A DNA stretch of 64,000 bases from Chitinophaga sp. (GCF_035538455.1 NZ_DATLKJ010000155.1:12766-76765); one strand, 5' to 3'. Positions 15,224-28,134 are shown, counted from the stretch's first letter. Notes: generated by a model not told the origin, from the letters alone. Translations and numbers: made by a program.

Positions 15224-15339
15224 ATATTTAGGGATTTGGGGATTTAGGAATTTGAAATGCAGCGGACATAAACACCGAAACAACCATTGTTATCTCCGCT
15301 GCATTTCAAATTCCTAAATCCCTAAATTCCTAAATATTT
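15222..15339. terminator. long imperfect inverted repeat (~45-bp arms, 28-nt loop) between convergent genes
   Basis: Left arm is 15222-15266 and right arm is 15295-15339, with two mismatches by eye. The arms contain ggattt(a/g)gg sub-repeats and include both genes' stop codons. Confidence 0.6.
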
Positions 15340-17638
15340 ACGGTTGCTTTTTCTTTTTGAAGAAAGAGAAGAAACCTCCGCCATTTCCTTTCAACACGGC
15401 TTTCTTATCAACCGCCGGCTGAAAAACCGCATCATGCTCCAGTATCCGGTCTATCAGTTTCCTGCATGCGGCCGTATCACCGTGGGCTTCGTAAGCAAGT
15501 GCCGTAGTATAATAGAAAGAAGATGCTTCCTTGTCCCAGCTCCAGTTCATGCCTTTGTATATCTGCATGCATTGCTGGCCGTAATCAATGCTCGTTTTAT
15601 AGTCATGTTCGCCCAGGTAGGCTTCCGACAGGAATGCATAGACACCAACACGGTTATTGGGCGAGTTATCTGAATCATCTCCCTGCCTCATAATGTTCAG
15701 CGTCAGCAGCATATCGGCAATGCAGGCTTTGTATCTGTGTAGCTTCAGGGCTGCTTTTCCCCTGAAGTAATAGATCTTCATCTGGGATACCACAGGAAGC
15801 TGCGTTATACCACCAATGGATATGCGATTATTGATAGCGCCGATACAGTGTTCATACTGGCCATTGTCAAAGTAGAGATACATCAGGTTGAAATAAGCAT
15901 CGCTGTCGTCAGGTTTTTCTTCCAGATGCATTTCAAGTGCCCGGATACGCTCAGCCAGGTCATTGGCGCTGCCGGATCTGATGAAGGCACGTCCTGTTTT
16001 GATCCGGTCTATATTGTAGGTGATAGTATCACGCTCATAATTATCCAGCTCCTCCATTTCCCGCGCGATCCATGTATCATATTCTCCAAGAATTTTATTG
16101 TAAAGCTCCAGCGCCTCTTCATGCCGCTCCAGGGAGGTAAGGTCTTCAATGATACGCTCATGGATAGACACGTAATACATAAGTGGTAGCGTATTGGTAA
16201 AAGAAGACAGAATGGCTTTCCGGTCGTTGACGGCCGCCTCTGCGTTGCCAAGGCTATGATAGGCGTCTGCTCTGGATTCCAGTTGTTCCCAGAACGGCGA
16301 CATATTATAGCCAATGGTATGCACACGCACTGCTTCTTCATAGTCGCTCAGCTCATACAACGTAATGCCGTAGTTGTTACAGCACATAGCATAGTGATGC
16401 GGATGGCCTGCATAAGAAGAACCACTGTTTTCATACCAGTAGGAATAATAGAGCTGGAAGGATCTGCGGTAAAGGAATTTCTTTACCTGCAACAGGGCGT
16501 TCCGGGCAGCTGCATCCTGTTCCTGCTGGATGATCTCACTGCTGATTACACCGGCCGTGTACCAATCGTACGGAACAATGTGGTCTGTATCTGGCCAGGA
16601 GTCGGGCAACGCGCCGGTAGTACGGAAATTGGCGTAATACCAGCGTATGATCGTGGAAGGATACGGCCGGATGTTGATTGCTTTTTCATAATAGGGCAGC
16701 GATTCGTGATAACTGCCGATATTAAAGAAGGCGGTAGCTGTATAATGGTAAAAGTAGGATTCCTGAGGATATGCTGCAATGAATCGTTTGCCGAGAGAAA
16801 TCTGTTCAAGCGTTCCTTCATATTCATCGTCTCCGAAAAAGCGCTGCCAGTAGGTAACAGAGCCCCAGCAAAAAGCCCTGGCCAATCCTGCATGTTGCAA
16901 ACCGTCATCCAGCAACTGTTTGATACTTTGCAATAAACGGAACAGCTCTTCGCTGCCGTTCTCTTCTCCGGTGAGTATGACCGGGAGCATATGTGCTACG
17001 AAATCATGGTCATTCATCAGTATCGCAAAGTTGGCAGTGGCAAGAGAACGGTTGTTGTGTACGGCGTATTTGAAAGCCTCTTTGTAATAGTCCAGTGAGA
17101 TATGATTTTCGCTTGAATAGTAGTAGAGATCGCCGATGTCGGTATAGCACTGAAACCTGGCTACATTCAGCCTGGGAAGGTTGTTGCGGTAGAGCGATTC
17201 GTACAGTTCAAGACAGTGCTCCATTTCAGCCTTCCCTTTTTCAATATCCTGGAGCGTCATATACACCTGGTACCGGTACTGCCGTGCTTTGATAGCCACT
17301 TCTGTATCTCCGTGACTGATCAGGTACTCACAGTCGCTCAGAGTGGTGTCTGTGTATTGATACAGGAAGCCTGCATCTGTATGGGCGCGGTATAGCCGCG
17401 CCTGTATATGCGTAGGATCAATGATGAGTGCCTGGGTAAAGGCTTCATAGGCAGCAGTGTGTGTTTCAAGAGCCTCCTGGTTGTTTTCCACATTTTTGGC
17501 CATTTCCAGTTTGCATAGTCCCAGTAAATGCCAGGCAGGGGCTTCATTGGAATGTGTCTGCAGATATATTTCCAATTGGGTGGCAGCAAGCGTATACGCC
17601 TGTTCGTTATACAGCCGTTCCAGTTCGTCGAAATGCAT
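15338..17638 (-). CDS. large TPR-repeat protein, function unknown
   Basis: 766-aa cytoplasmic-looking ORF with many TPR-like A/Y/L-patterned helical pairs. It lies directly downstream of the receiver gene at 17669..18088. Confidence 0.6.
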   Translation of the reverse strand: MHFDELERLYNEQAYTLAATQLEIYLQTHSNEAPAWHLLGLCKLEMAKNVENNQEALETHTAAYEAFTQALIIDPTHIQARLYRAHTDAGFLYQYTDTTLSDCEYLISHGDTEVAIKARQYRYQVYMTLQDIEKGKAEMEHCLELYESLYRNNLPRLNVARFQCYTDIGDLYYYSSENHISLDYYKEAFKYAVHNNRSLATANFAILMNDHDFVAHMLPVILTGEENGSEELFRLLQSIKQLLDDGLQHAGLARAFCWGSVTYWQRFFGDDEYEGTLEQISLGKRFIAAYPQESYFYHYTATAFFNIGSYHESLPYYEKAINIRPYPSTIIRWYYANFRTTGALPDSWPDTDHIVPYDWYTAGVISSEIIQQEQDAAARNALLQVKKFLYRRSFQLYYSYWYENSGSSYAGHPHHYAMCCNNYGITLYELSDYEEAVRVHTIGYNMSPFWEQLESRADAYHSLGNAEAAVNDRKAILSSFTNTLPLMYYVSIHERIIEDLTSLERHEEALELYNKILGEYDTWIAREMEELDNYERDTITYNIDRIKTGRAFIRSGSANDLAERIRALEMHLEEKPDDSDAYFNLMYLYFDNGQYEHCIGAINNRISIGGITQLPVVSQMKIYYFRGKAALKLHRYKACIADMLLTLNIMRQGDDSDNSPNNRVGVYAFLSEAYLGEHDYKTSIDYGQQCMQIYKGMNWSWDKEASSFYYTTALAYEAHGDTAACRKLIDRILEHDAVFQPAVDKKAVLKGNGGGFFSFFKKKKQP

Positions 17639-17668
17639 AACCGATCTTTATATGGCTATTTTAAATTG

Positions 17669-18088
17669 CTATTGTCTATCAGGGGAATAACTGATGCTAC
17701 GTTCCAGAATACCTGTGAGCAGGCTGCTCAACTCATGTAAACTGTTGGGTTTAGTGATAAAATAAGCGGCTCCGAGCTCCCGGGTTTTCTTCTTATCTGT
17801 TTCATGAGAGGAGGTAGAGTAAATGATAACCGGTATATGCCTGAGATCTTCCATCTTTCGCATCTCTGCCAGGAATTGTTTTCCATCCACGCGAGGCATA
17901 TTCAGATCGAGGAAAATTATATCCGGTGTCAGGGTACTTTCTAATTTGGCTAATGCTTCCTCTCCGTTGGTGGCTTCGTTGTAAATAATATCAGGCACCA
18001 GCTCTTTAAGGACCTCGCCAAATATCATCCTGTCGTCCACATCATCATCAATCAAAAGCACAGACCTGTACTTACAGCTTTTAAGCAT
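17669..18088 (-). CDS. single-domain response regulator (CheY-like receiver)
   Basis: LLIDDDVDD acidic pocket, phospho-acceptor context FLDLNMP, and conserved S/T and K (IIYSTS, ITKP). Confidence 0.85.
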   Translation of the reverse strand: MLKSCKYRSVLLIDDDVDDRMIFGEVLKELVPDIIYNEATNGEEALAKLESTLTPDIIFLDLNMPRVDGKQFLAEMRKMEDLRHIPVIIYSTSSHETDKKKTRELGAAYFITKPNSLHELSSLLTGILERSISYSPDRQ

Positions 18089-18245
18089 AATAAATTTTGA
18101 ATAAAGACAAATTTATGATTTTGTTACTATTTTCATACTACAATCTTGTCTGTCGGGAATCTGGGTTTAGATAATCTATTTTTGTTCGGCCCCCGATATT
18201 AGATACTTTTCCGGGAAATTTAAAACTTTTAACAAGCTCTGGCGG

Positions 18246-21200
18246 ATGAAGAAATATTTTACGCAGCTGCCATTATCGAGAAAGCTGCTGTTGATAGCTG
18301 TTGTGCCACTTATTTGCCTTATTTATTTCTGCATCCTTGTTTTTGACAAGCAGAATGAGAATATCCGAAGTATCGATTACCTGCAACAGCAGGTGAAGTA
18401 TTCCGACAATGTAATGGCGGTGGCAGATGCCATACACCTGGAACGGCGCTACAGTATGAATTTTATACTGGGATCGGGTTCTAAGGAGGATATGTTGGTA
18501 CACCGGGCTAAAACCGATATGGCCATTGAAGGGGTGAAGAATAATCTCCTGACGCCGGGCAGCCGTTTCCTGCAATACTCCATGCTCAACACCCTGCCCG
18601 TCAAGCGGAAACGTATTGATCTGCATGAAATAAAAGAACAGGATGTGCTGACGTATTACTCTGATATTATCTTCCGGCTGAATAATATGGCCAGGGTGGA
18701 TACACCGGATGTCACCACACCTGAAACACTACAGCAGGATCTTTCGTCCGAATATCTGCTGGCTGGAATGTCCACATATCTGGGTATTGTGCGCATGGAG
18801 TTGTATTACTTTATGCTGAGAGGAGATAAGACAGATGTAGGTTATGAGGACATGGAGAATCACTACAACATGTATCAGGCACTGCTCAGCGAGTATGAGG
18901 ACGTATCTACCACATTTCTCAGAAAAAGGTTCAGCAAAATTGAGCACAATACAACATATAGTGCTACCATTAAACTGATCAGCGACGTGTTAAGGGAAAA
19001 GCGCATCAATACAACGCTTAAAGCAGATGAATGGTGGAATACTTCGTCGCATGCTGTGGATTTGCTGAAGGAGCTGCAACATCAGACTTCAGCGTCCATC
19101 AGCAAAGATGCTAATACTGTGGCCAGGAGAGAGCGTTTGCGAAGGGATGAATATGTAGTGATTTTGATACTGATCATATTGGTGGTAATTGCTATTGTGT
19201 GGTTGACTATCAGGTCTATTACGGGCAGTCTCAATATACTCAGGGATGCTGCGGGAAAGATCTCCAAAGGGATGACAGGTATCGATCCGGGAATACAGAG
19301 CAAAGATGCCATTGGCAGTCTGGCGGCGTCTTTCGTGGAAGTGGACAGAACCAGCCAGCAGCTGGCTCTTGCGGCAGACAATATTGGCAAGGGGAATTTT
19401 CATATCAGTGTAAAACCGCGCAGTGAAGAAGATGTATTGGGGAATGCTATTGTACATATGGCGGCAGACCTGGAAGTGTTTCGTAAGAATGATGAAAGAA
19501 AGATATGGGTGCAGACAGGATTGAACCGGGTCAGCGAAATATTGCTGGGAGAGAAGCACCTGTCTTCACTTACCAACGATGCACTCACCACGGTGATGCA
19601 ATATACCGGTGCCCAGACCGGAGTATTGTATCTCAATGAGACCGATGGATTACATTTTTCTGCGGGGTATGCATTGCCGATAGAGCATCCGGCGCCAGAG
19701 AAGATCCCGGCTGGCAAAACGCTCCTTGGACAGGCTGCACAGCAGCAGGAGATCATCCGCCTGGAAGGCACGCCGGATGGATTCCTGCACGTTGGGGGAG
19801 GCATTACGTCCGGTAAACCGGGGTACGTGCTCGTGATCCCGCTGATACACGCTGGTATTACTGAAGGTGTGATAGAAATGGGCGCGCTGTTTCCATTGGG
19901 AGATAACGTTATCGAATACACGAAGCAGGCGGCGGTGCATATTGCCATCGCTATACAAAGTACGCGCAGCAGGAGCCGGTTGCAGGAACTGCTGGAAGAA
20001 ACCCAGGCACAGGCAGAAGAACTACAGGTACAGCACAGCGAACTGGAAAGCCTCAATGTGGAACTGGAAGCGCAGACGCAGAAGTTGCAGGTATCTGAAG
20101 AAGAGCTGAAAGTGCAGCAGGAAGAGCTGATGCAGTCGAACACTGAACTGGAAGAAAGGGCAAGATTACTGGAAGACAAGAATCAGGTGATACTGGACCG
20201 TAATCTTGAAATACGACGCAAGGCAGATGAGCTGGCAGCCAGCACCCGTTATAAATCAGAGTTTCTGGCGAATATGTCGCATGAGCTGCGGACACCACTC
20301 AACTCCATCTTGCTGCTGTCCCGCCTGCTGGCAGAGAATGCAGAACAAAATCTCAGTAACGATCAGCAGGAATATGCAAAGGTGATTAATAACTCAGGAA
20401 AGGGTTTACTGACACTGATAGACGAAATACTGGATCTCTCGAAAGTGGAATCCGGGAAGATGGAACTGGAATATGAGAAGGTGAGTATTCCTAATATAGT
20501 GTCCAATATGCAGGAGTTGTTTGAGCCGGTGGCGAAAGATAAAGGACTATCGCTGTTGCAAGAGATAGAACCTGGCACCCCTGCGGTAATAGAAACTGAC
20601 CAGAACAGGTTGGAGCAGGTATTGAAGAACATGCTGTCGAATGCCCTGAAATTCACTTCCCGCGGCGCTGTGACGTTGAAAGTACAGCATGGAAATACAC
20701 CGGGCACTATCCGTTTTGTGGTGAAAGATACGGGGATTGGTATCCCGGAAGACAAGCAGCAGGTGATATTTGAGGCGTTTCAGCAGGCCGATGGCTCCAC
20801 ACGCCGGAAGTATGGAGGCACCGGCCTGGGGCTTTCCATCAGCCGTGAACTTGCCCGATTGCTGGGTGGTAGCATACAGCTGACCAGCCGTGTGAATGAA
20901 GGCAGTGAATTCTCTATAACCATACCAGCAACGCGAGGTGAAATAGTACGGGACCCTGCAACAACGCAACCAGAACGTGTACCTGTTGCAACACCGGACG
21001 TAAGTTATCTTTCGACTATTATCCCGGCAGAGCTCAATGACGACAGGAATGAGATCCGGAGAGGGGATGAAGCGATTCTCATTGTGGAAGACGATACATA
21101 TTTTGCTGCCACCCTGCTTAACTTCACACGCCAGCGAGGATACAAGGGGATCGTCAGTGTACGCGGCGACCTTGCAGGCGACCTCGCCCGCAAATACAGG

Positions 21201-22247
21201 CCGGTAGCGATACTCCTTGATATACAACTGCCGGTAAAAGATGGCTGGCAGGTTATGGAGGAGCTCAAGAGCGACCCCGCTACCAAATCCATACCAGTGC
21301 ATATTATGTCTTCTCTGGAAGTGAAGAAGGAAAGCCTTATTAAGGGCGCGGTGGACTTTATCAGCAAGCCGGCAACGATAGAGAATATCCAGCTGATTTT
21401 TGAGAAGCTGGAGTTTGTATTGCACCGCGCTACCAGGAAAGTGCTGATACTCGAAGAAAATACCCGTCATGCACGTGCACTGGCTTACTTCCTGGAGAGC
21501 TATCAGGTGAATGCGGAGATCAGTCATGCAGCAGGGGATACTATTTATCTGCTGCAACAACCGGATGTGGATTGTGTGATCCTGGATATGGATATGTCTG
21601 AACAGGAAGCGCCAGAAACCTTGGAAAAGGTGAAGTCCGTGAAAGGATTGGAGAACCTGCCTGTGATCATCTTCACCGGTAAAACACTCACCAGACCTGA
21701 AGAACAACGCCTGCGCCAATATGCGGACTCTATTGTGGTGAAAACCGCGCATTCCTATCAACGCATCCTGGATGAAGTGTCGTTGTTCCTGCACCTGGTG
21801 TCGGAGCAGGCGGTAGCTGCACAGAACGGCAATGGGAAAATGGCCATGCTCAACGAAGTGCTGAAAGATAAAACAGTGCTGTTGGCAGACGATGACGTGC
21901 GGAATATTTATTCGCTTACACGGGCACTGGAAAAACATCAGATGAAGGTGCTGCCCGCAACAGACGGAAACGAAGCGTTGCAACAGTTGAAAGAGAACCC
22001 GGTGGATATTGTATTGATGGATATGATGATGCCGGAAATGGATGGCTATGACGCCATCGCAGCTATACGCGCCCAGCCGCAACTGGCGCAGCTTCCTGTT
22101 ATTGCTGTAACGGCAAGGGCAATGACCGGCGACCGCGAGAAGTGTTTGCTGGCCGGCGCCTCTGATTATATTTCCAAGCCAGTGGACGTTGACCAGTTAC
22201 TCTCTTTATTACGGGTATGGTTATACGATAAATCAATGAAAATGTAA
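18246..22247 (+). CDS. hybrid sensor histidine kinase: TM-NIT-like periplasmic domain-TM-HAMP-GAF-coiled coil-HisKA-HATPase-REC-REC(atypical)-REC
   Basis: 1333 aa with H-box MSHELRTPLN (H679), N-box LSNALKFT and G-boxes DTGIGI / GGTGLGLSI. The three receiver modules are ILIVEDD..LLDIQLP..ISKP, LILEEN..ILDMDM..VVKT and VLLADDD..LMDMMMP..ISKP. Confidence 0.9.
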   Translation: MKKYFTQLPLSRKLLLIAVVPLICLIYFCILVFDKQNENIRSIDYLQQQVKYSDNVMAVADAIHLERRYSMNFILGSGSKEDMLVHRAKTDMAIEGVKNNLLTPGSRFLQYSMLNTLPVKRKRIDLHEIKEQDVLTYYSDIIFRLNNMARVDTPDVTTPETLQQDLSSEYLLAGMSTYLGIVRMELYYFMLRGDKTDVGYEDMENHYNMYQALLSEYEDVSTTFLRKRFSKIEHNTTYSATIKLISDVLREKRINTTLKADEWWNTSSHAVDLLKELQHQTSASISKDANTVARRERLRRDEYVVILILIILVVIAIVWLTIRSITGSLNILRDAAGKISKGMTGIDPGIQSKDAIGSLAASFVEVDRTSQQLALAADNIGKGNFHISVKPRSEEDVLGNAIVHMAADLEVFRKNDERKIWVQTGLNRVSEILLGEKHLSSLTNDALTTVMQYTGAQTGVLYLNETDGLHFSAGYALPIEHPAPEKIPAGKTLLGQAAQQQEIIRLEGTPDGFLHVGGGITSGKPGYVLVIPLIHAGITEGVIEMGALFPLGDNVIEYTKQAAVHIAIAIQSTRSRSRLQELLEETQAQAEELQVQHSELESLNVELEAQTQKLQVSEEELKVQQEELMQSNTELEERARLLEDKNQVILDRNLEIRRKADELAASTRYKSEFLANMSHELRTPLNSILLLSRLLAENAEQNLSNDQQEYAKVINNSGKGLLTLIDEILDLSKVESGKMELEYEKVSIPNIVSNMQELFEPVAKDKGLSLLQEIEPGTPAVIETDQNRLEQVLKNMLSNALKFTSRGAVTLKVQHGNTPGTIRFVVKDTGIGIPEDKQQVIFEAFQQADGSTRRKYGGTGLGLSISRELARLLGGSIQLTSRVNEGSEFSITIPATRGEIVRDPATTQPERVPVATPDVSYLSTIIPAELNDDRNEIRRGDEAILIVEDDTYFAATLLNFTRQRGYKGIVSVRGDLAGDLARKYRPVAILLDIQLPVKDGWQVMEELKSDPATKSIPVHIMSSLEVKKESLIKGAVDFISKPATIENIQLIFEKLEFVLHRATRKVLILEENTRHARALAYFLESYQVNAEISHAAGDTIYLLQQPDVDCVILDMDMSEQEAPETLEKVKSVKGLENLPVIIFTGKTLTRPEEQRLRQYADSIVVKTAHSYQRILDEVSLFLHLVSEQAVAAQNGNGKMAMLNEVLKDKTVLLADDDVRNIYSLTRALEKHQMKVLPATDGNEALQQLKENPVDIVLMDMMMPEMDGYDAIAAIRAQPQLAQLPVIAVTARAMTGDREKCLLAGASDYISKPVDVDQLLSLLRVWLYDKSMKM

Positions 22248-23071
22248 TGAAGCATCACATTGATGAAAAAGAAGTAAATCTGTTGTTGAACGACGTAGCT
22301 GGGAAGTATGGCTACGACTTCACGGAATATGCACCTGCATCCATTAGCAGGCGGGTGAATCATCTTTTCCAGGCGGACCGGTTTCCGAGTTTTGCGGAGT
22401 TTCGCTATCGTATCGTCTCAGATCCTGAGTATGCTATGCGTTTTGTGGAAGAGATCACGGTGAATGTGACGGAAATGTTCAGAGATCCGCATTTCTACAG
22501 TGCGTTGCGTCAGGAAGTGTTGCCGGTACTGGCAACGTATCCACACATACGCATCTGGCATGCAGGCTGCTCTACGGGAGAAGAAGTATATTCATTTGCC
22601 ATATTGCTGAAGGAGGCTAACCTGCTGCATAAATCAGTGATATACGCAACAGATATTAACACCAGCGTATTGGAGAAGGGGCGGAAGGGCATCTTCCCCA
22701 TTTCACAGATGCAGCAATATTCACGCAATTATATGGAGGCAGGTGGATTACAGGACTTTTCGTCTTACTATACGGCCAATTATGATTACGTCAAATTCAG
22801 GGAAGAACTGGCGGAAAAGATCGTGTTTTCTCCCCATAATCTTGTTACTGACGGCTCTTTTAACGAATTTCAGCTGATCATCTGCCGGAATGTATTGATT
22901 TACTTCAACAGATCCCTGCAGGACAAAGTACTGCATCTTTTCTACGATAGTCTGGAACCCCTTGGGTTCCTTGCGCTTGGAAGCAAGGAATCCCTTAACT
23001 TCACAAGCGTAGCACAGAAGTTCAGGCAGTTGGGAAACCGGGAAAAAATATGGCGGAAAAATCACCTCTGA
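22247..23071 (+). CDS. cheR: CheR-type protein-glutamate O-methyltransferase
   Basis: 274 aa with the SAM-binding region IWHAGCSTGEEVYSFAILL and CheR-typical ends. Its start overlaps the kinase stop (TAATG). Confidence 0.85.
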   Translation: MKHHIDEKEVNLLLNDVAGKYGYDFTEYAPASISRRVNHLFQADRFPSFAEFRYRIVSDPEYAMRFVEEITVNVTEMFRDPHFYSALRQEVLPVLATYPHIRIWHAGCSTGEEVYSFAILLKEANLLHKSVIYATDINTSVLEKGRKGIFPISQMQQYSRNYMEAGGLQDFSSYYTANYDYVKFREELAEKIVFSPHNLVTDGSFNEFQLIICRNVLIYFNRSLQDKVLHLFYDSLEPLGFLALGSKESLNFTSVAQKFRQLGNREKIWRKNHL

Positions 23072-23090
23072 CTAAATTGAAATAGTAATA

Positions 23091-23669
23091 ATGACAGCTT
23101 CCCGTCTGATAGTGATAGGCGGTTCTGCAGGAGGGCTGCAGACTATATTGACCATGCTGCCTGCGCTGGATCCACAGCTCAGGGCCGCTATTATTATTGT
23201 ATTGCACCGGTATAACCAGCCTCAGTCAATGTTGGAAGATGTTCTTGCTGCGAAAACGAATCTGTCGGTAAAAGAAGCTGAAGAAAAAGAGCCACTGATG
23301 CCGGGAGTAATCTATGTTGCCCCGGCAGATTATCATTTACTGATCGAAAGAGATCATACACTGTCACTTGACTATTCGGAGAAGGTGCACTTTTGCCGTC
23401 CCAGTATAGACGTCACCTTTTCTTCCGCTGCTGCGGCCTATGGCCCGGATCTTACAGCCCTGCTGCTGTCCGGAGCCAATGATGACGGTGTGGAAGGATT
23501 GGTGGACGTGCATGATGCCGGCGGCATTACTATTGTGCAGACTCCGGATACCGCCCTGGTTGATTTTATGCCACGGCAGGCCATTGGTTCGGCGCCCGTA
23601 GATCACATACTGGACGCGCGTGAAATGGCTGTTTTTGTAAATACATTCAGTAACGGACCCGGAATATAA
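23091..23669 (+). CDS. cheB: CheB-type protein-glutamate methylesterase, catalytic domain only (no receiver)
   Basis: 192 aa with VIGGSAGGLQ (nucleophile Ser region), VLHR and LLSGANDDGVEG motifs typical of the CheB methylesterase domain. Confidence 0.8.
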   Translation: MTASRLIVIGGSAGGLQTILTMLPALDPQLRAAIIIVLHRYNQPQSMLEDVLAAKTNLSVKEAEEKEPLMPGVIYVAPADYHLLIERDHTLSLDYSEKVHFCRPSIDVTFSSAAAAYGPDLTALLLSGANDDGVEGLVDVHDAGGITIVQTPDTALVDFMPRQAIGSAPVDHILDAREMAVFVNTFSNGPGI

Positions 23670-23749
23670 ACCAACTTTTGGAGGCCGTCCTTTGGAGATG
23701 ACAGCCTGTATTGATTTGTAGCTGACTATGTTTACCCTGGAAAATTTTA

Positions 23750-25324
23750 TTGTGTATGATTTTAGTTGTAGATGATAAGCAGGAGAATATTCTTTCGATA
23801 AGAAAAACACTCGAGCAATATAACTTTGATGTAGATACGGCTACATCTGGTGAAGAAGCACTGAAGAAAATACTGAAGCACAGCTATACCCTGATCATCC
23901 TGGACGTACAGATGCCCAGTATGGATGGGTTTGAAGTAGCAGAGGCTATTTCCGGTTACAGCAAGGCAAGCGATATTCCTATCATTTTCCTGTCGGCAGT
24001 AAACAAAGACAAGCGTTTTATTGTGAAAGGATACGACTCCGGCGGTATGGACTACCTTACCAAACCGATAGATCCCGATGTGCTGTTGATGAAAGTGAAA
24101 ACCTTCTCCCGTTTGTATGAGCAATCCAAGCAGCTACAACAGATGCATCACTCGCTGAGTGAGGAGGTGGAAGTCCGTAAGCAGGCCGAAGCCGCTCTCA
24201 GCGAAAAGGTGAACGAACTGCGCACCACACTCGAAGCCTTACCACAGATAGCCTTCACACTCACAGTGGATGGCCGTATTGAATATGCCAACCGCTACTG
24301 GTTTAAGTATGCGGACGATATTCATTCATTTCCCGAGACATTGCCCATGGATAAAAGCATGGATGCATATCTGCATGAAACGCTGCGGACGGGCCAACCG
24401 CTGGAGAAAGAAGTATACCTCAAAGACAACGTAGAGAATAATTACCGCTGTCACCTGTTGCGCGTAATACCTGTAAAGGATAATAACGGTATTGTAAAAT
24501 GGATTGGTACGTTCACCGACATCGCCTATCAGAAGCAGGCCAACGAAATACTGGAGCAAAAAGTAAAAGAGAGAACAGAAGAGCTGGTAGAGATCAACAA
24601 ATCTTTGGAAGCGAGTAATCATGATCTGCAACAGTTCGCATCTGTAGCATCACATGATCTGAAAGAGCCATTACGTAAGATTCAGTTATTTGGCGCCATC
24701 ATCCGGGATAAGTTTCTGAAGGCAGATCCGCAGGCCCTGTCATACATGGAGCGGATTGTCAGCTCATCTGAGCGCATGGCGCGGCTTATCAACGATCTGC
24801 TTAACTACTCACGTCTTTCTGTAGGCGGCAGCTTCGCATTGACAGATCTGAATGAAGTAGTCCATGAAATACTCAGTGACCTGGAACTGACGATTTCAGA
24901 AAAGGAAGCACAGATTTACGTAGGACCGCTGCTCAGTGTGGACGTAATACCAGGTCAGATCAGGCAGGTATTTCAGAATATTATCAGCAATGCGTTGAAG
25001 TTTATCCGAAGGAATGTACCACCGGAAATCAGTATTACGGCAGAGCGGATAGCAGAGAAGTTTGCAGAGAGCGAAGCCCACCCAGATGGTGAATACTGCC
25101 GGATCATAGTCCGCGACAATGGCATAGGGTTCAATGAAAAGTATCTCTATAAAATATTCACCATCTTCCAAAGACTGCATGCAGCAGAGCTATATGAGGG
25201 AACGGGGATTGGATTAGCCATAGCCAAGAAGGTGATAGACAAACACCAGGGAATCATTACGGCGCGTAGTGTGGAAGGAGAGGGGGCTTCGTTTATAATT
25301 ATCTTGCCGATGGTACAGCAATAA
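23750..25324 (+). CDS. response regulator-PAS-histidine kinase (REC-coiled coil-PAS-HisKA-HATPase)
   Basis: Receiver ILVVDDKQEN..ILDVQMP..LTKP, H-box ASHDLKEPLRKI and G2 box GTGIGLAIAKK. The true start could be the ATG at 23756. Confidence 0.85.
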   Translation: MCMILVVDDKQENILSIRKTLEQYNFDVDTATSGEEALKKILKHSYTLIILDVQMPSMDGFEVAEAISGYSKASDIPIIFLSAVNKDKRFIVKGYDSGGMDYLTKPIDPDVLLMKVKTFSRLYEQSKQLQQMHHSLSEEVEVRKQAEAALSEKVNELRTTLEALPQIAFTLTVDGRIEYANRYWFKYADDIHSFPETLPMDKSMDAYLHETLRTGQPLEKEVYLKDNVENNYRCHLLRVIPVKDNNGIVKWIGTFTDIAYQKQANEILEQKVKERTEELVEINKSLEASNHDLQQFASVASHDLKEPLRKIQLFGAIIRDKFLKADPQALSYMERIVSSSERMARLINDLLNYSRLSVGGSFALTDLNEVVHEILSDLELTISEKEAQIYVGPLLSVDVIPGQIRQVFQNIISNALKFIRRNVPPEISITAERIAEKFAESEAHPDGEYCRIIVRDNGIGFNEKYLYKIFTIFQRLHAAELYEGTGIGLAIAKKVIDKHQGIITARSVEGEGASFIIILPMVQQ

Positions 25325-25564: not shown

Positions 25565-26074
25565 ATGGCAAAGATAGATTTAGGTGAAGGTGTTAAGCCG
25601 CCGTTTATGGGTACTATTCAGCATCTTTGCATCTACGAGATGCATGGGAAATATTATATACGCCTGAAGAGTTCCCTTACGGGTAAAAGGGTAAAGAAAG
25701 ACCCTGCCTTCCGCAGAACGATGGAGAATGCCGGGTTTCTCGCTGCTGCGTCTAAGATCGCATCCTGTGTATACCGTCAGCTTCCTCCGCAATATAGAAA
25801 ACATGTTTTGTACCGCCAGCTTACCGGTAAAGCTTTGCTTTTGTTAAGGGAGGGTAAGCATAGTGATGTTATTACCACTGAGCTAAAGAAAATGTGTCCG
25901 CAGGAGGCAACTGTAAAAGCCGTACGTAAACCCGTTATTCGTCGCAATCAGGCGCCTGCACTGTGGCGATATGGTAATATAGTACCCCGTTTTTTACACT
26001 GTACAAGGCCGGTTGATGTATTGAATCTTCCAACTAAGAAAGGGGCTCACCTACACAAGGTTGATGATACATAG
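25565..26074 (+). CDS. hypothetical basic protein (169 aa)
   Basis: ORF with normal composition. No family motif recognised. Confidence 0.45.
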   Translation: MAKIDLGEGVKPPFMGTIQHLCIYEMHGKYYIRLKSSLTGKRVKKDPAFRRTMENAGFLAAASKIASCVYRQLPPQYRKHVLYRQLTGKALLLLREGKHSDVITTELKKMCPQEATVKAVRKPVIRRNQAPALWRYGNIVPRFLHCTRPVDVLNLPTKKGAHLHKVDDT

Positions 26075-26349: not shown

Positions 26350-28134
26350 ATGCATATAGCCAAGATTGTGATAGCCATTATAAAAGCAGGCACTGAACAA
26401 TGCGAGCGGGAAGAAGATAAGAAGAGAATAAGAATCATTAACGCCCTATGCCTGACTACGGCGTCCGCAGCTATATTAATAGGTAGCCTCATTTATGTAT
26501 TTACCCGCGATTTGAGAATTGAGATTCCCGCAATATGTGAGGGGATGCTTTTTCTATCTGTTATTTTCTTTAATAAGTACAATCGGCATAATACAGCAAG
26601 TCTGTTTTTTATTTTGACCCATACTATATCAGCATTATACTTCGGTATTATTTTAGGTCAGCTTATAAATATTACACTGGTTGCTGTTTTTATTTTTGGC
26701 CTCTCTTTTCTTATCATCAGGTCGAAGCAATTATTAATCATAGCGATCTGTGCTATTGGATTGACTTTATTGCTGCTTGAAGTTAATTTTTATTATCAGA
26801 TATTTCAGCCTTTGCAACTATCACGTCAGAATCAATTTATATTAAGGTGGCTGGCCTTATTTGTACTTCTTGGTTTTGATGTATTTGGCGTATTGTTGAC
26901 CATACATTATATGAGAGAGAACCGTTTTCTTTATACCTCTCTAAAGGATTATTCAGAAAAGCTGGAGAAGTCGGTGAAGGAATTGGAGTTTGCAAATCTT
27001 TCAAAACGTGTATATCTCAGAGAAACCAGCCACGAAATACGTACCCCGTTGAATGCGGTGTTTGGCATATCTCAGCTCCTTGAGATGATTATGAATAAGG
27101 TATCAGATAATGGAAGTATAAGTCCTGCTGAATTGAGAGAAACTATTTCCCTGGTTGGGAGTTTGAACGCAGCGAGCTATTACACTCGTAATATTGTAAA
27201 CAATGTGTTGGAACTATCGACAATAGAAGCAGGAAAGCTAAATGGCGTTCAGAAGGTAGTCTTTCATCTGAGACCCTGGATTGAGAGTATTGTACAGATG
27301 CATGGATATATCGGGCAGGCAAAGGGGGTAAGAATAGCCCTAAATATTGATGAATCGACGAAGGGAGCATTATTGATCACCGACAAAATAAAACTGACCC
27401 AGATTGTTACAAACCTGTTGTCCAATGCAATAAAATTTTCACCGGAAGTAGGCGTGGTAACTATTGAACTATTTACAGGAGGAACAAACCTTTATCTGAA
27501 GGTTATTGATAACGGAGAGGGAATCAGTAAAGAAAAGCAACAGTCAATATTTCAGCCATTTGAAAGCGGGAAAAATGGATTTGTAGAAGGAACAGGGTTA
27601 GGGTTGTATATCGCGAAGTGCCTTGTAGAGCTGCTTAAAGGAACTATTACAGTGCGATCAGTCCTGGAAAGAGAAACTACCTTTGAAGTTTGTTTTCCGG
27701 AGGTTTTTGCAGATCCACTTGTTTATGTAGATGTACAGGGTGATGACAACACACCTCTATGCAGTTTACGAGAGAAGAAGATATTAATGATAGATGATGA
27801 TAAACTAGCCCGCACCTTGGTAAGTATGTACCTTACGGATGCGGGCAGTTATTTTATTCATGCGGAGAATGGTATTGAGGGAATAGAGAAGGCCCGTGTT
27901 GAGAAACCAGATCTGATTATTCTCGACTCACATATGCCCGGTATGTCGGGTAAGGAAACACTGATAAACATTCGTCATGACCAATTACTACATGATATTC
28001 CGGTAATTTTAGCATCCGGGGATGCCTATAAGGAAACACGGGACGAGATGTTAAATGCCGGAGCTGATGAGTTTCTAACCAAGCCGCTTAAATTCTCTGA
28101 ACTTCATAGGGCAATCAGTCAGTTTATGCGTTGA
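26350..28134 (+). CDS. membrane hybrid sensor histidine kinase/response regulator
   Basis: About 5-6 N-terminal TM helices, H-box TSHEIRTPLNAV, G2 box GTGLGLYIAK, and a C-terminal receiver ILMIDDD..ILDSHMPGMSG..LTKP. The exact start is uncertain. Confidence 0.85.
   Translation: MHIAKIVIAIIKAGTEQCEREEDKKRIRIINALCLTTASAAILIGSLIYVFTRDLRIEIPAICEGMLFLSVIFFNKYNRHNTASLFFILTHTISALYFGIILGQLINITLVAVFIFGLSFLIIRSKQLLIIAICAIGLTLLLLEVNFYYQIFQPLQLSRQNQFILRWLALFVLLGFDVFGVLLTIHYMRENRFLYTSLKDYSEKLEKSVKELEFANLSKRVYLRETSHEIRTPLNAVFGISQLLEMIMNKVSDNGSISPAELRETISLVGSLNAASYYTRNIVNNVLELSTIEAGKLNGVQKVVFHLRPWIESIVQMHGYIGQAKGVRIALNIDESTKGALLITDKIKLTQIVTNLLSNAIKFSPEVGVVTIELFTGGTNLYLKVIDNGEGISKEKQQSIFQPFESGKNGFVEGTGLGLYIAKCLVELLKGTITVRSVLERETTFEVCFPEVFADPLVYVDVQGDDNTPLCSLREKKILMIDDDKLARTLVSMYLTDAGSYFIHAENGIEGIEKARVEKPDLIILDSHMPGMSGKETLINIRHDQLLHDIPVILASGDAYKETRDEMLNAGADEFLTKPLKFSELHRAISQFMR

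Follow-up and report, generated by a model that had tools for sequence, protein, structure and literature searches.

A NIT-sensor copy of the kinase-CheR-CheB cassette in Chitinophaga and a candidate methyl-accepting glutamate ladder in its kinase

In Pseudomonas putida, CfcA (PP_3761) is a CHASE3/GAF hybrid kinase that is required to activate the diguanylate cyclase CfcR (PMC4951495, PMC6849547); the products of the genes cfcB and cfcC are a CheR/CheB pair, and CfcD includes a REC domain (PMC4951495). According to PMC4951495, a chemotaxis role of CfcB and CfcC was ruled out by earlier work, and the job of the CheR/CheB pair is left unexplained in that paper. The bmsA type of cluster, in which a CHASE3/GAF hybrid kinase stands beside CheR, CheB and a second hybrid kinase and which has been linked to biofilm formation and motility (PMC8175716), is represented by the BmsA cluster of Pseudomonas alkylphenolica (Lee et al. 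2016, cited in PMC8175716) and by genes 3082-3079 of the Pseudomonas strain in PMC8175716. The present work concerns a locus in Chitinophaga sp. that contains a hybrid sensor kinase, a CheR-family methyltransferase, a CheB methylesterase and a second kinase. The locus lies in the window, a 64-kb stretch of an 8.13-Mb assembly of 278 contigs that is 97.9% complete.

This locus is a Bacteroidota copy of a widespread kinase-CheR-CheB-REC/kinase cassette of the cfcABCDE/bmsA type. The arrangement, to which an earlier note on the same DNA had drawn attention, is not a new kind, having already been described genetically in Pseudomonas (PMC4951495, PMC8175716) and being very widespread. What is new here is a NIT-sensor copy in a genome without a match for methyl-accepting chemotaxis proteins (MCPs) or GGDEF. 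Chemoreceptor adaptation is the textbook role of CheR and CheB, yet a CheR above the cut-off is encoded in about half of the Bacteroidota genomes sampled (208 of 401, each at least 90% complete). The Chitinophaga genome is a clean test case, with one CheR, one CheB and one kinase that carries a heptad ladder of glutamates (the Glu ladder), and with no MCP, CheW or GGDEF match. The best explanation of the cassette, and one in which moderate confidence may be placed, is that CheR and CheB tune the kinase through methylation of this ladder. Judged from the sequence comparisons given below, the methylation target is likely to be the conserved glutamate-rich helix of the kinase itself.

Identity of the cassette and the chemotaxis core

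The elements on which the argument depends are the following, with positions counted in the window.

18246-22247, plus strand: hybrid sensor kinase of 1333 residues, CfcA/BmsA-like (Pfam scan, translation)
19971-20249, plus strand: Glu-ladder coiled coil, residues 576-668 of the kinase, candidate methyl-accepting segment (conservation, heptads, AlphaFold2)
22247-23071, plus strand: CheR-family protein-glutamate methyltransferase of 274 residues, CheR_N and a domain that binds S-adenosylmethionine (SAM) (PF01739, E 1.2e-42, and PF03705, both above cut-off)
23091-23669, plus strand: CheB methylesterase domain alone, 192 residues (PF01339, E 6.1e-52)
23750-25324, plus strand: second kinase, REC-PAS-HisKA-HATPase_c, 524 residues counted from a TTG start (Pfam)

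The four plus-strand genes are tightly packed and form one of two divergent units; the other is a minus-strand pair, a TPR gene and a small REC gene, on the far side of a gap of 157 nucleotides (nt). The ATG of cheR overlaps the stop codon of the kinase as TAATG, a 1-nt overlap, and 19 nt separate cheR from cheB. The start of the second kinase is more likely the ATG at 23756, two codons past the TTG at 23750, which gives a protein with a normal receiver N-terminus (MILVVDD...). The six genes that the earlier note had listed, together with the TAATG overlap, a CheB without a receiver and a receiver with the sequence LILEEN, were all recovered by a scan of open reading frames (ORFs) and Pfam families.

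Relatives of this CheR number 411 in a species-level genome collection, and neighbourhoods were compared in the best 80 of them. In 62 of these 80 loci, CheR is immediately preceded by a kinase that shares the C-terminal half and immediately followed by CheB, while six more end at contig edges with the kinase partly visible. The cassette order is found in Chitinophaga, Chryseolinea, Pedobacter, Sphingobacterium, Chryseobacterium and Larkinella. The identity of CheR across many genera is 62-86%, and ladder-bearing kinases number 2828. The sensor of the kinase varies: Chitinophaga and some relatives have NIT, whereas CHASE3 takes its place in most other genera; since NIT and CHASE3 forms are 67-86% identical from the ladder onward, the variation appears to represent a sensor swap within one family. 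The REC-PAS kinase is present in most cassette loci, but its place is not fixed: it lies downstream here, whereas most other genera have it upstream of the big kinase. The cassette is also annotated on a Brucella anthropi plasmid and on Sphingobium plasmids, where the third gene is annotated only as a histidine kinase; the kinases of both align at about 51-54% over the ladder and the dimerisation and histidine phosphotransfer (DHp) domain, and both carry the same ladder. On Niallia and Bacillus records, a ladder kinase and a CheR are adjacent by coordinates.

Three loci outside the genus have further features. In the Brucella anthropi cassette (NZ_CP008817.1, 128081-142518) the gene ends overlap throughout, a 123-residue single-domain response regulator adjoins, and IS6 transposases lie nearby on a 156-kb plasmid, which fits horizontal spread. 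One Bacteroidota locus (L085, G146:C12:1000-14000) has two methylation modules next to each other, made up of CheR, CheB, a CHASE3-GAF-ladder kinase with three RECs, a PAS-HK-REC-REC protein (HK, histidine kinase) and a CheB-CheR-PAS-HK-REC fusion; in its ladder kinase, a 21-residue repeat (EKEKRAAELAIANKELAFQNE) occurs in three copies immediately ahead of the Glu ladder. On a plasmid of Streptomyces fungicidicus (L104, NZ_CP023408.1, 445801-460259), a 1334-residue HAMP kinase with a short EL/EEL ladder is followed by the partner-switching genes for a SpoIIE phosphatase, three STAS proteins and an anti-sigma factor; this kinase is possibly a CheR-free relative of the ladder kinases.

The presence of a chemotaxis core was evaluated with the profiles PF00015 (MCPsignal), PF01584 (CheW, and with it the CheA P5 domain and CheV) and PF02895 (CheA dimerisation domain). 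None of the three has a match in the Chitinophaga assembly, and all three matched control genomes. The earlier statement that no MCP, CheA or CheW lies within the 64 kb holds, and the whole-genome search that had been proposed as a check on it likewise returned no match at this level of completeness. The genome has exactly one CheR and one CheB. A second, weak CheR match on another contig was rejected as a generic methyltransferase domain in an MMPL-acyltransferase fusion. This 1308-residue MMPL-acyltransferase-methyltransferase fusion (G000:C184:69447-76563) is followed by FAD amine-oxidase-like and acyl-CoA:6-APA (6-aminopenicillanic acid) acyltransferase-family proteins, a gene group that looks like a lipid or pigment modification operon.

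In the phylum sample of 401 genomes, MCPsignal is matched in 110. In the class to which Chitinophaga belongs, CheR is strongly matched in 46 genomes of the sample besides the present one; 43 of these are without a strong MCPsignal match and three have one. On this sequence evidence it appears very unlikely that the CheR and CheB of the present locus serve MCPs. A separate observation concerns a Bacteroidota family with genomes of 2-3 Mb (f23), in which CheR occurs in 54 of 86 genomes, mostly in ORFs of about 1000 residues, and MCP in only one of the 86; these ORFs are likely to be CheB-CheR fusion kinases.

The Glu ladder and its association with CheR and CheB

The domains of the kinase run in the order TM1, NIT, TM2, HAMP, GAF, Glu-ladder coiled coil, HisKA, HATPase_c, REC1, REC2 and REC3, where TM1 and TM2 are transmembrane segments. 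Residues 576-668, which lie between the GAF domain and the H-box, contain ...LLEETQAQAEELQVQHSELESLNVELEAQTQKLQVSEEELKVQQEELMQSNTELEERARLLEDKN..., and the ladder consists of nine heptads of the form x-[E/S/V/T]-E-L-x-x-x, with a Leu every seven residues from 593 and 600 to 642. The residue preceding the Leu is Glu in eight of the nine heptads; it is conserved at 94% or more, and is invariant at 592, 599, 620 and 627. Three of the heptads have Glu-Glu (591/592, 619/620 and 626/627), and the other core position of the heptads is occupied by Asn, Gln, His and Thr. Glu and Gln together make up 44% of the ladder, compared to 13% of the whole kinase, and the exposed Glu and Gln residues are invariant across orthologues. 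The ladder motif occurs once in the Chitinophaga genome.

The conservation of this segment is comparable to that of the catalytic parts of the protein, with a mean column conservation over 62 orthologues of 0.835 in the ladder, 0.879 in the DHp domain, 0.748 in the ATPase domain, 0.77-0.82 in the receivers and 0.39 in the linker. The ladder is the best conserved part upstream of the H-box, with an identity to relatives of 67-86% (tblastn), despite a GAF domain that is only 23-66% identical to theirs and a sensor that has been swapped. Every indel in the ladder family is exactly seven residues long, which is one heptad. An AlphaFold2 model built from a 29-sequence alignment (mean predicted local distance difference test score, pLDDT, 84.4) predicts one unbroken helix at residues 553-697, which spans the last GAF helix, the ladder (pLDDT 90-95), His679 and the end of DHp helix 1.

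The occurrence of ladder kinases was also compared with that of CheR across genomes. A close ladder kinase (E <=1e-22) is present in 19 of the 401 Bacteroidota genomes, that of Chitinophaga included, and all 19 have CheR. Eighteen of the 19 are without an MCPsignal match, and the remaining one (G270) has a weak match only (E 3.6e-6). In five genomes the CheR-CheB pair stands alone among housekeeping genes or beside the REC kinase only, and the ladder kinase is encoded elsewhere, about 315 kb from CheR-CheB in one complete chromosome. The ratio of stand-alone CheR genes to ladder kinases is 1:1 in four of these genomes and 2:2 in the fifth, and none of the five has an MCPsignal match. In a one-chain CheB-CheR kinase (L084), the same ladder (...SNEELQASNEELQSMNEELRS...) lies between CheR and PAS and does not lead into a DHp domain. 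The REC-PAS kinase was rejected as the methyl acceptor, as it has no conserved Glu segment: its REC domain is conserved at 0.83, its linkers at 0.52-0.60, and it is without a Glu ladder.

Both enzymes look active, judging from the residues that they retain. CheR aligns with the solved structures 5ftw, 1af7 and 1bc5 and keeps the SAM-site motifs C/A-STGEE-Y and CRNV-IYF; its score of 113 bits is below the 435-bit NCBIfam equivalog cut-off for chemotaxis CheR. The CheB triad of Ser12 (GGSAGG), His39 (VLHR) and Asp132 (NDDG) aligns to GSSTGG, VQHM and GKDG of 3sft. It is the conjunction of conservation, heptad phasing, co-occurrence with CheR, the ladder of the fusion kinase, a REC-PAS kinase without a ladder and intact enzymes that makes the Glu ladder the best methyl-accepting candidate. 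The earlier note had proposed that methylation acts directly on a histidine kinase or on its partner. Its departure from MCPs as the target is upheld, and the choice that it left between kinase and partner is narrowed by the comparative evidence, which points to the coiled coil of the kinase.

The remaining features of the kinase, all on the plus strand, are as follows.

18420-19100: NIT sensor domain, residues 59-285 (PF08376, E 5.8e-17)
19560-19958: GAF domain, residues 439-571 (PF13185/PF01590)
20253-20933: kinase core, HisKA at residues 670-737 and HATPase_c at 784-896 (Pfam)
20280-20282: phospho-accepting His679, within HisKA
21066-21410: REC1, about residues 941-1055, canonical, with E-D-D, D992, S1022 and K1041
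21432-21785: REC2, about residues 1063-1180, atypical, with E1070-E1071-N1072 in place of the E-D-D of REC1
21876-22211: REC3, residues 1211-1322, canonical, with D-D-D, D1259, T1289 and K1311

The NIT domain is flanked by hydrophobic segments at about residues 13-33 and 303-322, and is therefore predicted to face outward. The HAMP domain is weak (18.7 bits against a Pfam cut-off of 25 bits), and the H-box is invariant among orthologues. In REC2, the sequence LILEEN occupies residues 1067-1072, and alignment to REC1 places Glu and Asn at two metal-binding acidic positions. The substitution of EEN for the usual DD acidic pocket, to which the earlier note had drawn attention, is real and conserved in the family, the first Glu being present in 62 of 62 orthologues, the second in 57 and the Asn in 61. 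It is therefore a selected family trait and not decay. REC2 retains the phospho-acceptor D1114 as well as T1144 and K1166, and this D, T and K are invariant in the 62 orthologues.

Proposed mechanism and alternative explanations

In the mechanism that is proposed for the cassette, the outward-facing NIT domain would sense a signal, for which nitrate or nitrite is suggested by the family name only, and the signal would pass via HAMP and GAF into the long helix (residues 553-697) ending in His679. The ladder in the middle of this helix would present, in each of its nine heptads, an exposed Glu or Glu-Glu before the core Leu. The dedicated CheR would methylate these residues and the receiver-less CheB would demethylate them. 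Methylation would alter the charge and packing of the helix and reset the kinase output, thereby providing gain control or memory, and phosphate would then pass to the kinase's own receivers and probably also to the REC domain of the REC-PAS kinase. The ladder as substrate, the direction of the effect, the partners in phosphotransfer and the signal are those that we infer. There is no Hpt domain near the locus, and the three in the genome sit inside large proteins elsewhere. As CheB consists of the methylesterase domain only, without an N-terminal receiver, any feedback would have to come from the conformation of the substrate. The idea of adaptation without chemotaxis, as the earlier note expressed it, goes further than the evidence.

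The more general proposition is that CheR and CheB reversibly methylate a ladder on the helix of a two-component kinase, that this provides a receptor-free and chemotaxis-independent form of adaptation or gain control, and that the ladder kinases constitute a second large class of methyl-accepting signalling proteins, present in several phyla and including MCP-free bacteria. This proposition, which would also explain the CheB-CheR fusion kinases, is given a slightly better than even chance. Were the ladder indeed the substrate, tuning by methylation would reach beyond chemotaxis arrays and include classical two-component kinases.

Several observations weigh against the ladder as a methylation substrate. 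The strict MCP methylation consensus [ASTG]2-x2-[EQ]2-x2-[ASTG]2 has no match in the six proteins of the cassette region, and a relaxed form of the site is matched once, at kinase residue 587 (QAQAEELQVQ). MCP methylation sites do alternate between Glu and Gln, and CheB deamidates Gln there; alternation of this kind is almost nil at the in-register Glu positions of the ladder among orthologues, and only position 612 varies between Gln and Glu. CheR and CheB are known to act on an antiparallel four-helix bundle, and the ladder is expected to form a parallel two-helix coil, which is unlike it. The co-occurrence of CheR and ladder kinases among related genomes is not independent evidence. A full-text literature search found no report of methylation for any kinase of the cfcA/bmsA-type family. 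Finally, the kinase on the Streptomyces fungicidicus plasmid is identical in its H-box and carries a ladder, though a shorter one, with no CheR or CheB in its 7-kb flanks, and a ladder-like helix can therefore exist without CheR and CheB nearby. This last case, together with the missing strict site motif, is what lends weight to the view that CheR and CheB modify some other protein, such as the REC-PAS kinase, the small receiver or an unlinked substrate, and that the ladder is conserved only as a transmitter from GAF to the kinase core; signalling helices between sensor and DHp domains are, moreover, often conserved. Such a view does not sit easily with the poorly conserved, ladder-free linkers of the REC-PAS kinase, nor with the fusion protein, in which a ladder stands beside CheR and does not lead into a DHp domain. 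Pure transmission also does not require that exposed Glu and Gln residues outside the core be invariant, or that stand-alone CheR genes and ladder kinases match one to one even if they are unlinked. Modification of another protein is accordingly regarded as unlikely, although it is the alternative that deserves to be taken most seriously.

Two further explanations turn on the lack of a chemotaxis core. The CheR/CheB pair could be a decaying remnant of a lost chemotaxis system that is without present function, which would be consistent with a genome that has no MCP, CheA or CheW match; but both genes are intact and retain their catalytic residues, cheR is translationally coupled to the kinase gene, and a relic would not be kept across the class with the degree of CheR identity seen among genera and in every sampled genome that has a close ladder kinase. 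The remnant explanation is thus highly improbable. A conventional MCP/CheA/CheW set that is the real target could instead be hidden in the unassembled part of the genome, roughly 2%, and the fragmentation of the assembly leaves room for one. Such a set would need several genes, however, of which none was seen; MCPsignal is without a match in four chromosome-level Ilyomonas assemblies from metagenomes and a Chitinophaga pinensis draft, all of which carry this CheR family, and likewise in 17 of the 18 other ladder-kinase genomes, the last having one weak match only. A hidden set is, if anything, even less probable than a remnant.

Neighbouring genes and comparison with known systems

The minus-strand unit of the locus consists of two genes.

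15338-17638, minus strand: TPR protein of 766 residues (only TPR families match; Pfam)
17669-18088, minus strand: single-domain response regulator of 139 residues with canonical residues (PF00072, E 3.3e-22)

The TPR gene lies 30 nt downstream of the small REC gene in the same orientation. It is found in one of 80 genera of the family, and the genome has a paralogue of 768 residues and 33% identity (G000:C90:23350-25656) that adjoins no kinase but genes for an ECF sigma factor, an anti-sigma factor (FecR) and a TonB-dependent receptor that carries an STN domain. Membership of the TPR protein in the system, considered by analogy to CheR-TPR fusions, is not supported in view of this genus restriction and of the ECF-sigma/FecR/TonB context of the paralogue; the protein is probably a genus-specific neighbour and not part of the cassette. 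The small REC is syntenic only in close Chitinophaga, and next to the plasmid cassette of Brucella anthropi there is likewise a small REC gene; the 139-residue protein is possibly a partner of the system.

Downstream of the cassette lie a basic ORF of 169 residues without a family match (25565-26074) and a 594-residue HisKA-HATPase-REC hybrid kinase (26350-28134), neither of which is syntenic in related Chitinophaga loci. These two and a terpene synthase were rejected as parts of the locus, as they are not syntenic in relatives. A scan for promoters and terminators gave counts at or below the shuffled expectation, with a consensus of the sigma-70 and not the Bacteroidota type. No protein of the locus passes an NCBIfam cut-off; the best partial likenesses are to HrmK (hybrid kinase), EpsF (REC-PAS kinase) and EpsW (small REC).

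Among described systems, cfcABCDE is the one that the locus resembles in gene order and domains: the cluster opens with a hybrid kinase that has a GAF domain and a periplasmic sensor, a CheR/CheB pair follows, and a REC-containing protein is part of the cluster. In both the cfcABCDE and bmsA clusters, as here, cheR and cheB come next after the hybrid kinase gene and have its orientation, and the REC-PAS-HisKA-HATPase_c protein belongs by its domain architecture to the same class as CfcD. The Chitinophaga kinase differs from that of cfcABCDE in having NIT instead of CHASE3 and in its three receivers, and its host is without detectable MCPs, whereas P. putida has chemotaxis systems. GGDEF (PF00990) has no match in the Chitinophaga genome, and an output through cyclic di-GMP of the CfcR type therefore seems unavailable. 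From the BmsA cluster the locus is separated by phylum and by sensor domain. Caulobacter HmrABCX was considered as a further comparison and was found to be unrelated.

The adaptation of Tar and Tsr in E. coli and Salmonella (1af7, 1bc5, 1chd, 1a2o) involves the same enzyme families with conserved active sites, and the candidate sites of the ladder, like those of MCPs, occupy the exposed side of a heptad helix as Glu or Glu-Glu at intervals of seven residues. It differs in that Chitinophaga has no MCP, CheA or CheW match, its CheB is without the receiver that gives feedback, and the strict site consensus is unmet. The MCP is a four-helix bundle in an array, whereas the ladder is expected to be a two-helix parallel coil that runs into DHp. 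The CheB-CheR fusion kinases, which also occur in Bacteroidota genomes without MCPs, are represented by L084, with the order CheB_methylest-CheR_N-CheR-ladder-PAS_10-HATPase_c. There the enzymes and the ladder are in one chain, the ladder precedes PAS and not DHp, and the type of kinase is different, but the ladder is the same NEELQ/EEL heptad ladder, and it stands directly after CheR.

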